This document shows, piece by piece, positions 57,282-60,220 of a stretch of 64,000 nt of DNA. Source of the DNA: Escherichia coli (GTDB taxonomy: Bacteria > Pseudomonadota > Gammaproteobacteria > Enterobacterales > Enterobacteriaceae); the NCBI RefSeq assembly GCF_003790525.1, contig NZ_CP033635.1; one strand, given 5' to 3'. The notes under the pieces are model-generated. The model was not told where the DNA came from. It worked only from the letters and a program-made list of their open reading frames with translations, and ran no database searches. The stretch's first letter is position 1, and each line of letters opens with the position of its first letter. The position numbers were made by a program, and so were the translations under genes.

Positions 57282-58898
57282 ATGCTCAGTCAAATTCAAC
57301 GCTTTGGCGGCGCGATGTTCACGCCAGTGCTGCTGTTTCCCTTCGCCGGGATTGTGGTGGGTCTTGCCATCTTGCTGCAAAACCCGATGTTTGTCGGGGA
57401 ATCACTGACCGATCCGAACAGTTTATTCGCGCAAATCGTACATATTATTGAAGAGGGCGGTTGGACGGTATTCCGTAATATGCCGCTGATTTTTGCTGTC
57501 GGTTTACCCATTGGCCTTGCTAAGCAAGCGCAGGGGCGAGCTTGTCTGGCGGTGATGGTGAGTTTCCTGACCTGGAACTATTTCATCAACGCGATGGGAA
57601 TGACCTGGGGAAGCTACTTCGGCGTCGATTTCACTCAGGACGCGGTGGCAGGTAGCGGTCTGACAATGATGGCCGGGATTAAAACCCTCGATACCAGCAT
57701 TATCGGCGCAATTATCATTTCCGGCATTGTGACGGCGCTGCATAACCGTCTGTTCGATAAAAAACTGCCGGTGTTTCTCGGCATTTTCCAGGGGACATCT
57801 TATGTGGTGATTATCGCCTTCCTGGTGATGATCCCCTGCGCCTGGCTGACGTTGCTCGGCTGGCCAAAAGTACAAATGGGGATTGAATCTCTGCAAGCGT
57901 TCCTGCGTTCGGCGGGTGCGCTTGGGGTCTGGGTTTACACCTTCCTCGAACGTATTCTGATCCCAACCGGTTTACACCACTTCATCTACGGACCGTTTAT
58001 CTTTGGTCCGGCAGCTGTTGAAGGCGGCATTCAGATGTACTGGGCGCAGCATCTGCAAGAGTTCAGTTTGAGCGCCGAGCCGCTGAAATCGTTGTTCCCG
58101 GAAGGCGGTTTTGCCCTGCACGGTAACTCAAAAATCTTTGGTGCCGTGGGCATTTCTTTAGCGATGTACTTCACTGCCGCACCGGAAAATCGGGTAAAAG
58201 TGGCGGGCTTGCTGATCCCCGCAACCTTAACCGCCATGCTGGTGGGAATTACCGAACCGCTGGAATTTACCTTCCTGTTCATTTCACCGTTGCTGTTTGC
58301 GGTACACGCTGTGCTTGCGGCCTCAATGTCGACCGTGATGTACCTCTTTGGTGTGGTGGGCAACATGGGCGGAGGTCTGATTGACCAGGTTTTACCGCAA
58401 AACTGGATCCCGATGTTCAGCAACCACGCGGATATGATTTTGACCCAAATCGCCATTGGGTTGTGCTTTAGCCTGCTGTACTTCGTGGTTTTCCGCACCC
58501 TGATTCTGCAATTCAACATGTGCACGCCGGGACGTGAAGATGCGGAAGTGAAACTCTACTCAAAAGCCGAATACAAAGCCTCGCGAGGCCAAACCACCGC
58601 GGCAGAGCCAAAAAAAGAGCTGGATCAGGCTGCCGGTATCCTGCAAGCCCTGGGCGGGGTCGGCAATATCTCCAGCATCAACAATTGCGCGACGCGTTTA
58701 CGTATTGCACTGCATGACATGTCACAAACGCTGGATGACGAAGTCTTTAAAAAGCTGGGAGCGCACGGCGTCTTCCGTAGTGGCGATGCCATTCAGGTGA
58801 TCATTGGTTTGCATGTATCCCAGCTGCGTGAACAGCTCGATAGCTTAATTAATTCTCATCAATCAGCAGAAAATGTTGCCATTACGGAGGCAGTATAA
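57282..58898 (+). CDS. glvC: PTS alpha-glucoside-family EIICB component (fused IIC-IIB, apparently intact)
   Basis: ATG at 57282 after AAGAGGA; membrane EIIC domain followed by EIIB with phosphorylatable Cys (NCATRLR). Confidence 0.85.
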
Positions 58899-60220
58899 TG
58901 ACCAAATTCTCAGTGGTTGTCGCAGGCGGTGGAAGCACCTTTACGCCAGGCATCGTGTTGATGCTCCTGGCGAATCAGGACCGTTTCCCGCTTCGTGCAC
59001 TGAAATTTTATGATAACGATGGTGCGCGGCAGGAAGTGATTGCCGAAGCCTGTAAAGTCATCCTTAAAGAAAAAGCGCCGGACATTGCGTTTAGTTACAC
59101 CAACGATCCTGAAGTGGCATTCAGCGACGTTGATTTTGTCATGGCGCACATCCGCGTCGGCAAATACCCGATGCGCGAACTGGATGAAAAAATCCCGCTG
59201 CGCCACGGCGTTGTTGGTCAGGAAACATGCGGACCCGGCGGAATAGCGTACGGCATGCGTTCCATTGGCGGCGTCCTGGAACTGGTGGATTATATGGAAA
59301 AATATTCACCAAATGCCTGGATGCTCAACTACTCCAACCCGGCAGCCATTGTCGCAGAAGCCACGCGTCGTCTGCGCCCGAATGCGAAAATCCTCAACAT
59401 CTGTGACATGCCAATCGGTATTGAAAGCCGGATGGCGCAAATTGTTGGGCTGCAAGATCGCAAACAGATGCGCGTGCGCTACTACGGCCTGAACCACTTT
59501 GGCTGGTGGACATCAATTGAAGATTTGCAGGGCAACGACCTGATGCCCCAGCTGCGGCAATATGTCTCTAAGCACGGTTATGTTCCACCGCAGCAAGATA
59601 CACATACTGAAGCGAGCTGGAACGACACCTATGCAAAAGCGCGGGATGTCCAGGCACTGGACCCGGATACATTGCCGAACACCTATCTGAAATATTATCT
59701 CTTCCCGGATTATGTCGTTCAGCATTCCAACCCTGAACATACCCGCGCGAATGAGGTGATGGAGCATCGCGAGAAACAGGTTTTCGATGCTTGCCGCGCC
59801 ATTACGGCGGCAGGAAATTCAGCAGCGGGCAAGCTGGAAATTGACGAACATGCGTCATACATCGTCGATCTGGCGGCGGCAATTGCCTTCAACACTCAGG
59901 AGCGGATGTTGCTGATTGTGCCTAACAACGGGGCAATTCATAACTTTGATGATGAAGCGATGGTCGAGATCCCGTGTCTGGTCGGGCACAACGGACCAGA
60001 ACCACTGGTGGTCGGCGAGATCCCGCAGTTTCAGAAAGGGTTAATGAGTCAGCAAGTGGCGGTGGAAAAACTGGTCGTGGACGCCTGGGAGCAGCGTTCA
60101 TATCAGCACCTGTGGCAGGCGATTACGTTGTCGAAAACGGTACCGAGCGCCGCGGTCGCCAAAGCTATTCTGGATGAGTTGCTGGAGGCCAACAAAGCGT
60201 ACTGGCCAGAGTTACGTTAA
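58898..60220 (+). CDS. glvG: 6-phospho-alpha-glucosidase (glycoside hydrolase family 4), apparently intact
   Basis: 440-aa [27 protein letters not shown] (NAD-binding GGGS motif); start overlaps the PTS gene stop. Confidence 0.85.

Follow-up and report, generated by a model that had tools for sequence, protein, structure and literature searches.

The window, a 64,000-nucleotide stretch of E. coli contig NZ_CP033635.1, carries what we take, with a probability of about 80%, to be the ancestral, undamaged glv allele of E. coli: a three-gene module, orthologous to the agl genes of Klebsiella pneumoniae, that would work as proposed below. An intact glv allele is real, ordinary and already known. 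An earlier note, made from the letters alone, had read this locus as an alpha-glucoside system that is cryptic in K-12 and perhaps functional here, an interpretation that our analysis partly supports.

Gene models and protein families

Over its glv part, the window matches E. coli SMS-3-5 with 100% identity; in that strain yidP, the EIICB gene and glvG are all intact (Table 1). The earlier note had claimed a single fused permease of about 538 residues overlapping, stop on start, a full-length 440-residue family-4 6-phospho-alpha-glucosidase. Both gene models were confirmed, with the overlap as TAATG and GH4 domains spanning the hydrolase end to end, and realignment uncovered no internal stops or frameshifts, cryptic or otherwise, in either gene. 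The open reading frame list gives the hydrolase as 58898..60220 (+, 440 aa) and the permease as 57021..58898 (+, 625 aa). Starting instead at the conserved ATG (MLSQIQRF...) yields 538 aa, in agreement with the RefSeq coding sequence in SMS-3-5. The 87-codon extension from 57021 is unconserved, with 13–66 open codons lying 5' of the shared ATG in other species, and intergenic lengths among species differ by non-multiples of three, which supports the suggestion that the extension is non-coding.

Table 1. Features of the glv locus, in window coordinates.
Feature	Coordinates	Strand	Description	Basis or remark
yidP	56270..56986	-	GntR/HutC-family regulator, wHTH + UTRA	Pfam GntR and UTRA; RefSeq CDS
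Control region	56987..57281	.	Divergent yidP/glv control region	30-species alignment
Candidate YidP operator	57107 and 57127		Inverted repeat, GTCTAC ... GTAGAT	Conserved as GTCTA-N16-TAGA(C/T)
CRP-like site	57153-57168		CATGA-N6-TCACG	Conserved, 30-species alignment
-10-like hexamer	57209-57214		TATCCT	Conserved, 30-species alignment
Shine-Dalgarno of the EIICB gene	57270		GAGGA	Conserved, 30-species alignment
glvCB (fused)	57282..58898	+	Alpha-glucoside-specific PTS EIICB permease, 538 aa	No EIIA domain
Codon 369	58386..58388	+	CAG (Gln) here, TAG in K-12	Realignment with K-12
glvG (aglB/glvA ortholog)	58898..60220	+	Predicted GH4 NAD+/Mn2+-dependent 6-phospho-alpha-glucosidase, 440 aa	
508-bp segment	59491..59998	+	Kept here, deleted in K-12	Flanked by GAACCACT direct repeats
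yidL	60217..61110	-	AraC-family regulator	Convergent with glvG; neighbour, outside the glv module

The permease scored 955.7 bits against TIGR02005 (alpha-glucoside-specific EIICB; cut-off 607.3), the match covering residues 2–523 and the profile having 524 positions. Pfam places PF02378 (PTS_EIIC) at residues 10–346 and PF00367 (PTS_EIIB) at 453–482, and gave no match to an EIIA domain in this protein. The GITE motif lies at 322 and the phosphorylatable Cys469 within NNCATRLR. The best matches of GlvG were to K. pneumoniae AglB (PDB 6DUX; E=6.6e-274, 912 bits, about 88% identity) and Bacillus subtilis GlvA (1U8X; E=3.4e-224, 748 bits), compared with 209 bits for the best 6-phospho-beta-glucosidase, and we therefore place GlvG, as judged by sequence, with the characterised phospho-alpha-glucosidases and not with the GH4 beta-glucosidases or alpha-galactosidases. 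Its domains are PF02056 (Glyco_hydro_4, residues 6–184) and PF11975 (4C, 195–415), and it keeps the NAD+ motif GGGS at 10–13, the Mn2+ ligands C169 and H200 and the catalytic D170 and Y263, these four residues aligning with C171, H202, D172 and Y265 of B. subtilis GlvA. The 'arbutin' of the earlier note is a legacy K-12 label; the two proteins belong to the TIGR02005 alpha-glucoside EIICB and 6-phospho-alpha-glucosidase families.

Could the reading frames look intact while a missense, start or frameshift problem kills one of the proteins, leaving the locus as dead as in K-12? We consider this very unlikely. The permease does depart from near-invariant residues (A292S, V498F and E520D), and strains with the intact allele have no reported phenotype; the three changes are nonetheless conservative, affect 3 of 148 such positions and spare both the phosphorylation cysteine and GITE. 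In GlvG none of 223 near-invariant positions has changed, a result that led us to reject hidden missense inactivation of this enzyme, and the start codon and Shine-Dalgarno sequence of the EIICB gene are conserved across species. Within E. coli, dN/dS ranges from 0.02 to 0.11 across yidP (about 0.02), the EIICB gene and glvG, and the glv proteins are under strong purifying selection.

K-12 lesions and glv alleles across E. coli

In the MG1655 annotation the locus is split into glvC (368 aa), glvB (161 aa) and a glvG pseudogene of 815 bp, just as the earlier note had stated. Aligning the window with K-12 glvCBG, the check that note had proposed, placed two lesions: a CAG-to-TAG change at codon 369 (window 58386), which separates glvC from glvB, and the loss of 508 bp from glvG (59491-59998), which shifts the reading frame and is bounded by the 8-bp direct repeats GAACCACT at 59491-59498 and 59999-60006. 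Neither lesion is present in the window, so the K-12 locus is not identical in structure, although its genes (b3683, b3682 and b4556) occupy the same site between yidP and yidL and the shared sequence has ~98.7% nucleotide identity. The 'cryptic' K-12 locus glvC-glvB-glvG was reportedly described by Reizer et al. in 1994.

We took allele counts over 5,426 complete E. coli genomes. The TAG allele occurs in 348, and the carriers, all K-12 lab types among those sampled, are apparently K-12 laboratory derivatives; 3,925 genomes have CAG. The 508-bp deletion is present in ~2,614 genomes (48%) and glvG is undeleted in 1,652 (30%), O157:H7 and BL21/REL606 among them, while the whole locus is absent from ~1,150 genomes (B2 type), from which a 3.9-kb deletion has removed it. 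Ten of 12 sampled genomes with undeleted glvG had a fully intact locus, and roughly between a quarter and a third of E. coli share the intact state. The earlier note had implied that such a locus is rare, a view these counts do not bear out; moreover, the fused and complete state of REL606 was published in 2012 (PMC3446290). In REL606/BL21(DE3) and O157:H7, as in the window, EIICB is fused and glvG complete (RefSeq '6-phospho-alpha-glucosidase'). As a polymorphism, the glv locus has three clear states, which follow E. coli lineages: intact, with the hydrolase deleted, or with the whole module deleted. K-12 is a poor reference for it. A K-12-derived fragment model, NF007255, makes RefSeq call the full-length permease 'subunit IIB'.

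Proposed sugar route and its regulation

By orthology, GlvCB would take up alpha-linked glucosides (isomaltose, maltitol, methyl-alpha-glucoside, palatinose and other sucrose isomers) and phosphorylate them during uptake at O-6 of the glucosyl unit. Because GlvCB carries no EIIA domain, the phosphoryl group would probably pass from PEP through EI and HPr to the general EIIA-Glc (Crr) of the host and from there to GlvCB. The Klebsiella permease AglA is Crr-dependent and uses E. coli EIIA-Glc, according to PMC5309279, which cites Pikis 2006. GlvG would then cleave the phosphorylated glucoside, with NAD+ and Mn2+, to glucose-6-phosphate and the aglycone, and the TAATG overlap may couple translation of glvCB and glvG.

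Two characterised systems bear on this proposal. The K. pneumoniae aglA/aglB genes, encoding an alpha-glucoside PTS EIICB and a phospho-alpha-glucosidase, are said to have been described by Thompson et al. in 2001 and Pikis et al. in 2006. They share with glv the gene order, a divergent GntR-family gene upstream and a permease (81% identical to GlvCB) that lacks EIIA and is likewise expected to use Crr; unlike glv, which is known here from its genes, agl is experimentally functional and supports growth on sucrose isomers, isomaltose, maltitol and alpha-methylglucoside. The B. subtilis glvA-glvR-glvC operon (malA operon) has both activities, which for E. coli are predicted, and the same catalytic residues, its GlvA sharing about 73% identity with the E. 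coli hydrolase and its GlvC about 60% with the permease; it differs in having the hydrolase gene first and in its regulator GlvR, which does not belong to the GntR/HutC proteins. GlvR is a positive regulator, to go by a title in the reference list of PMC5309279.

Within the control region we found no consensus sigma-70 promoter, and no intrinsic terminator either there or downstream of glvG; an Rfam scan at E<=1 returned no leader RNA, riboswitch or antiterminator. The CRP-like site matches 7 of 10 consensus positions and lies ~61 bp upstream of the putative transcription start; the glv promoter would be weak and probably cAMP-CRP-dependent. The conserved elements of Table 1 recur in the K. 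pneumoniae control region with their spacing unchanged. E. coli shows small differences: as -10-like hexamer it has TATCCT where Klebsiella has TATTCT, the right half of the operator reads TAGAT in place of TAGAC, and YidP carries two unusual substitutions, G22N and E73Q, at sites that do not vary among 45 orthologs.

YidP is likely the cognate glv regulator, since a yidP homolog always stands beside the EIICB and hydrolase genes across 46 gammaproteobacterial loci, divergently upstream in all those with enough flank, accompanying them as far as Aeromonas, Proteus and Vibrio, and since B2 strains have lost yidP, the EIICB gene and glvG as one block, keeping yidL-yidK. It would probably act on the glv promoter through the GTCTA-N16-TAGA(C/T) repeat, most likely as a repressor freed by the phosphorylated alpha-glucoside. 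A 79-bp deletion frameshifts yidP in the B lineage, unlike SMS-3-5, and the gene is intact in O157:H7. A literature search for YidP turned up no functional study.

The earlier note had instead pointed to the adjacent AraC-family gene, yidL. The adjacency stands: yidL directly adjoins glvG, with a 4-nt overlap, in E. coli and four other enterobacterial loci. That it is a dedicated activator of the glv genes is extremely unlikely, and we rejected a regulatory role on synteny and deletion patterns. The gene is convergent with glvG rather than upstream; it is missing beside glv in most species and found there only where yidK is too; B2 strains retain it although they lack the glv module; and MRE162 and O121 have lost yidL-yidK-yidJ with the module left intact.

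Phenotype and expression of the intact locus

According to standard identification tables, essentially 0% of E. coli ferment alpha-methyl-D-glucoside, and the species is palatinose negative. The EIICB gene and glvG are intact in REL606 (PMC3446290), as they are in the E. coli B strain C41(DE3), and both REL606 and BL21(DE3) failed to respire or grow on alpha-methylglucoside, palatinose, turanose and maltitol (for REL606, PMC3446290). On palatinose and turanose BL21(DE3) drew weak 'w' calls, which we set aside as background after comparing them with other wells and with the negative control of PM2. A 6-phospho-alpha-glucosidase alone suffices for K-12 to grow on alpha-methylglucoside (PMC5309279), and the negative B strains therefore count against function; with both AglA and AglB expressed, the same paper has K-12 growing on alpha-methylglucoside, isomaltose and sucrose isomers. 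The functional alpha-glucoside system envisaged by the earlier note is accordingly not supported, given that these two strains, structural genes intact, were negative on four alpha-glucosides. Our search for SMS-3-5 and O157:H7 phenotypes and for species-level alpha-methylglucoside tables yielded nothing usable.

One explanation, to which we give somewhat less than an even chance, is that the locus is intact but silent, its promoter or regulator barring useful expression in ordinary conditions until a mutation or some signal intervenes, as in bgl, asc and chb. It would account for the negative B strains and identification tables, and it draws on the missing consensus promoter and on the E. coli-specific changes in the -10-like hexamer, the half-site and YidP. 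However, the dN/dS values indicate that all three proteins are selected in E. coli, and the promoter has exactly the geometry seen at the functional Klebsiella locus. Nor are the tested B strains a clean case, as their yidP is broken: a simple repressor-only model would predict constitutive expression from the frameshift, which ill fits their negative phenotype, and if YidP were needed as an activator, strains that keep yidP, among them SMS-3-5 and O157:H7, could still test positive.

The weight of the finding is modest. Were the intact allele expressed, isomaltose, maltitol and the food sweetener isomaltulose could serve as substrates for about a quarter of E. coli, O157:H7 included, and the same strains could detoxify alpha-methylglucoside-6-phosphate, with a bearing on gut ecology, diagnostic sugar panels and the use of industrial feedstocks. 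Were it silent, glv would be one more cryptic sugar operon of E. coli.

A broader reading, which we regard as rather doubtful, is that intact glv is a phenotypically silent operon that strong purifying selection nonetheless maintains in roughly one quarter of E. coli, expressed only in response to some signal and lost elsewhere by repeated microhomology deletions. Its corollary would be a function of EIICB independent of the hydrolase, a role suggested by roughly 2,300 non-K-12 genomes that bear the 508-bp glvG deletion and in which EIICB is intact and constrained.

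Intact glv genes and the K-12 lesions

The crypticity of glv in K-12 has been on record since the 1990s. MG1655 is annotated with the EIICB gene split into glvC (368 aa) and glvB (161 aa) and with glvG as an 815-bp pseudogene, and PGAP marks the same two genes with 'internal stop' and 'frameshifted' flags. The window, which is 100% identical to the Escherichia coli SMS-3-5 chromosome (NC_010498.1) across 3.3 kb, instead carries a full-length fused EIICB gene and glvG, a difference claimed in the earlier note and borne out by annotation and alignment. Running the K-12 alignment proposed there revealed exactly two disabling lesions, a nonsense mutation and a deletion (see table). 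The length of the deletion is no multiple of three, and GlvG residues 198-367, including the catalytic Tyr263, are lost. Other differences in the K-12 EIICB gene comprise 17 synonymous and 3 non-synonymous changes.

Features of the glv region (window coordinates)
Feature	Position	Strand or orientation	Details
yidP	56270-56986	divergent from glvCB	GntR + UTRA domains (Pfam), GntR/HutC
ORF, EIICB frame with upstream extension	57021-58898	+	ORF table
Inverted repeat, candidate operator	57107-57132		GTCTA(C)-N16-(G)TAGA(C/T); conserved block
Putative CRP-like site	57153-57168		CATGA-N6-TCACG; CRP-site spacing, consensus match 7/10
Weak -10-like hexamer	57209-57214		TAT(T/C)CT; conserved block
Shine-Dalgarno of EIICB	57270		GAGGA; fourth conserved block
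K-12 nonsense lesion	58386		C to T, codon 369 CAG to TAG; alignment
ORF, glvG	58898-60220	+	ORF table
K-12 glvG deletion	59491-59998		508 bp, between two copies of GAACCACT; alignment

EIICB starts at ATG 57282, just after the GAGGA, as in RefSeq. Because this is the sole start kept across an alignment of 30 species, and the open frame 5' of it varies from 13 to 100 codons depending on species, the extension from 57021 is non-coding, as previously suspected. The EIICB stop and glvG start share TAATG. At the other end, glvG and the AraC-family gene yidL converge, with stop codons sharing 4 nt (60217-60220) and no intrinsic terminator in between, so each transcript would read antisense into the other. 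The G+C content of yidL and the yidL-yidK intergenic region (60250-61250) is 0.41-0.44, versus 0.51-0.55 in flanking genes.

The 538-aa EIICB scores 955.7 bits against TIGR02005 'alpha-glucoside-specific IIBC' (cut-off 607.3). Pfam places PTS_EIIC at 10-346 and PTS_EIIB at 453-482 and finds no EIIA domain; GITE at 322 and Cys469 within NNCATRLR are both retained. GlvG, a 440-aa GH4 enzyme (Pfam Glyco_hydro_4 and 4C), matches the Klebsiella pneumoniae '6-phospho-alpha-glucosidase' (PDB 6DUX; E=6.6e-274, ~88% identity) and B. subtilis GlvA (1U8X; E=3.4e-224). It has the NAD motif GGGS at 10-13 and keeps C169, D170, H200 and Y263, the counterparts of GlvA C171, D172, H202 and Y265. At positions at least 97% conserved among 79 homologs, GlvG shows no departures (0/223) and EIICB three (of 148: A292S, V498F and E520D, all conservative). 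Pairwise dN/dS within E. coli (EIICB 0.02-0.05, GlvG 0.05-0.11, YidP 0-0.05) points to genes on which purifying selection has acted rather than sequence long dead.

RefSeq/PGAP labels this EIICB (WP_000952122.1, 57282-58898) 'PTS sugar transporter subunit IIB'. The name appears to come not from TIGR02005 but from NF007255, a 161-aa equivalog that covers residues 378-538 alone and equals the K-12 GlvB fragment; the misnaming looks like an artefact spreading from the K-12 pseudogene. In Citrobacter braakii ATCC 51113, a 7-bp tandem duplication (TTCTGCG three times versus twice in E. coli; ~4990-5010 of extracted locus L004) shifts the EIICB frame near codon 224, reflecting either independent permease decay or an assembly error.

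Distribution of glv alleles in E. coli

Of the 5,426 complete E. coli genomes in which we counted alleles, 4,267 have 80% or more of the glv locus. The 508-bp glvG segment is kept in 1,652 (30%), O157:H7 and BL21/C41(DE3) among them, and the K-12 deletion junction, matched full length as a 55-mer, occurs in 2,614 (48%), which makes the deletion an old, widespread allele. SNP-centred 55-mers detected the TAG allele in 348 genomes and CAG in 3,925. Since all ten TAG records sampled were K-12 laboratory derivatives, the glvC/glvB split is a K-12 peculiarity. Among 12 genomes drawn evenly from the 1,652, yidP, EIICB and glvG are all intact in 10, the others being an O15:H12 strain with the B-lineage 79-bp yidP deletion and one poor assembly. 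The intact state, confirmed here, is thus not unusual, and it was already known: it is common, carries RefSeq annotation, and was described for E. coli B in a 2012 paper. Our analysis adds the exact K-12 lesions and their species-wide frequencies, the assignment of yidP as module regulator with a conserved putative promoter layout, and the easily tested question of whether the intact E. coli operon is silent.

The glv module is missing from ~1,150 genomes, for example ATCC 25922. At its junction (5906-6000 of locus L085), yidP keeps its last ~100 bp and yidL is short of ~30 bp at its 3' end, giving a yidL of 867 bp versus 894 bp in the window. With this remnant and the clipped yidL, the B2-type empty site is the scar of a 3.9-kb deletion (window ~56374-60249) rather than a primitive absence; Touchon et al. 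(2009; PMC2617782) list glvC among genes missing in B2 strains, in agreement.

In wild strains with the 508-bp deletion (L086 and L087; EIICB at 1783-3399), EIICB and yidP are still intact. One such EIICB is exactly the O157:H7 protein (WP_000952127.1), and dN/dS among these strains is ~0.04. This hints at a hydrolase-independent permease role or at recent recombinational spread of the deletion.

The probable regulator and control region

The earlier note pointed to yidL, as an adjacent AraC regulator. In 79 loci with GlvG relatives from other species, every gammaproteobacterial locus with enough flank has a YidP homolog (40-81% identity) divergent from and 220-300 bp upstream of the EIICB-hydrolase pair, in Citrobacter, Klebsiella, Raoultella, Kluyvera, Enterobacter, Serratia, Rahnella, Aeromonas, Proteus, Pectobacterium, Brenneria and Vibrio. 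YidL adjoins glv in just four, all with YidK. In B2 strains yidP, EIICB and glvG have gone as one block and yidL-yidK-yidJ is still there; the reverse is seen in MRE162 and an O121 strain, where an IS200/IS605-TnpB element has taken the place of yidL-yidK-yidJ beside an intact glv module. Synteny and joint loss therefore point to yidP as the module regulator, and the rare adjacency of yidL, only with yidK, and the opposite loss patterns speak against yidL in this role. At the insertion (L096, L097; 4027-5807), 75 bp of yidL remains, and the element consists of a tnpA pseudogene and an intact TnpB/InsQ gene.

Control-region elements (see table) were identified by aligning the divergent yidP/glv intergenic regions of 30 species. 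K. pneumoniae, whose operon is known to work, shares the same predicted elements at identical spacing, with half-sites 21 nt apart and the -10 lying 56 nt from the CRP-like site. No consensus sigma-70 promoter was found in the control region, which fits activator dependence; the CRP-like site would be centred near -61, in class I geometry, if transcription begins ~7 nt past the hexamer. An Rfam scan of the region gave no family match.

At two sites, in and just past the winged-helix DNA-binding domain, the E. coli YidP sequence (N22, Q73) departs from every one of the 45 orthologs compared (G22N and E73Q). Purifying selection on yidP within E. coli is nonetheless strong.

Phenotype and predicted function

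In Yoon et al. 2012 (PMC3446290, Table S1), glvG is complete and glvB-glvC fused in REL606, and glvG is a pseudogene in MG1655; phenotype arrays in that study gave zero signal for both strains on palatinose, turanose and maltitol. Alpha-methylglucoside was negative in 5/5 calls for BL21(DE3), MG1655 and REL606 (Kim et al. 2018, PMC6150544, S6 Table), and the weak palatinose and turanose calls for BL21(DE3) are indistinguishable from its own PM2 negative-control well. Given the negative arrays for REL606 and BL21(DE3), intact structural genes do not confer an alpha-glucoside phenotype in the B lineage.

In these strains, EIICB and glvG are intact and the reading frame of yidP is broken by the loss of 79 bp (gene nt 176-254), a deletion bordered by ACGG repeats and shared by C41(DE3) (L083, 359-996) and the O15:H12 strain (L098, 159-796). 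Either a positive requirement for YidP, broken there, explains the negative B strains, or the E. coli glv promoter is silent regardless of regulator. We found no phenotype records in the literature for SMS-3-5, O157:H7 or other fully intact strains; the negative profile of the E. coli type strain is uninformative for glv.

The portion of PMC5309279 that cites Thompson 2001 and Pikis 2006 describes the K. pneumoniae EIICB, AglA, as working with host EIIA-Glc, and growth on alpha-methylglucoside as needing only the 6-phospho-alpha-glucosidase, since PtsG imports and phosphorylates this compound. With 81% identity to AglA and 88% to the K. pneumoniae hydrolase AglB, the E. coli EIICB and GlvG would be expected to act like them. 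The 'arbutin' label suggested earlier does not hold, as the two proteins fall in alpha-glucoside-specific and 6-phospho-alpha-glucosidase families.
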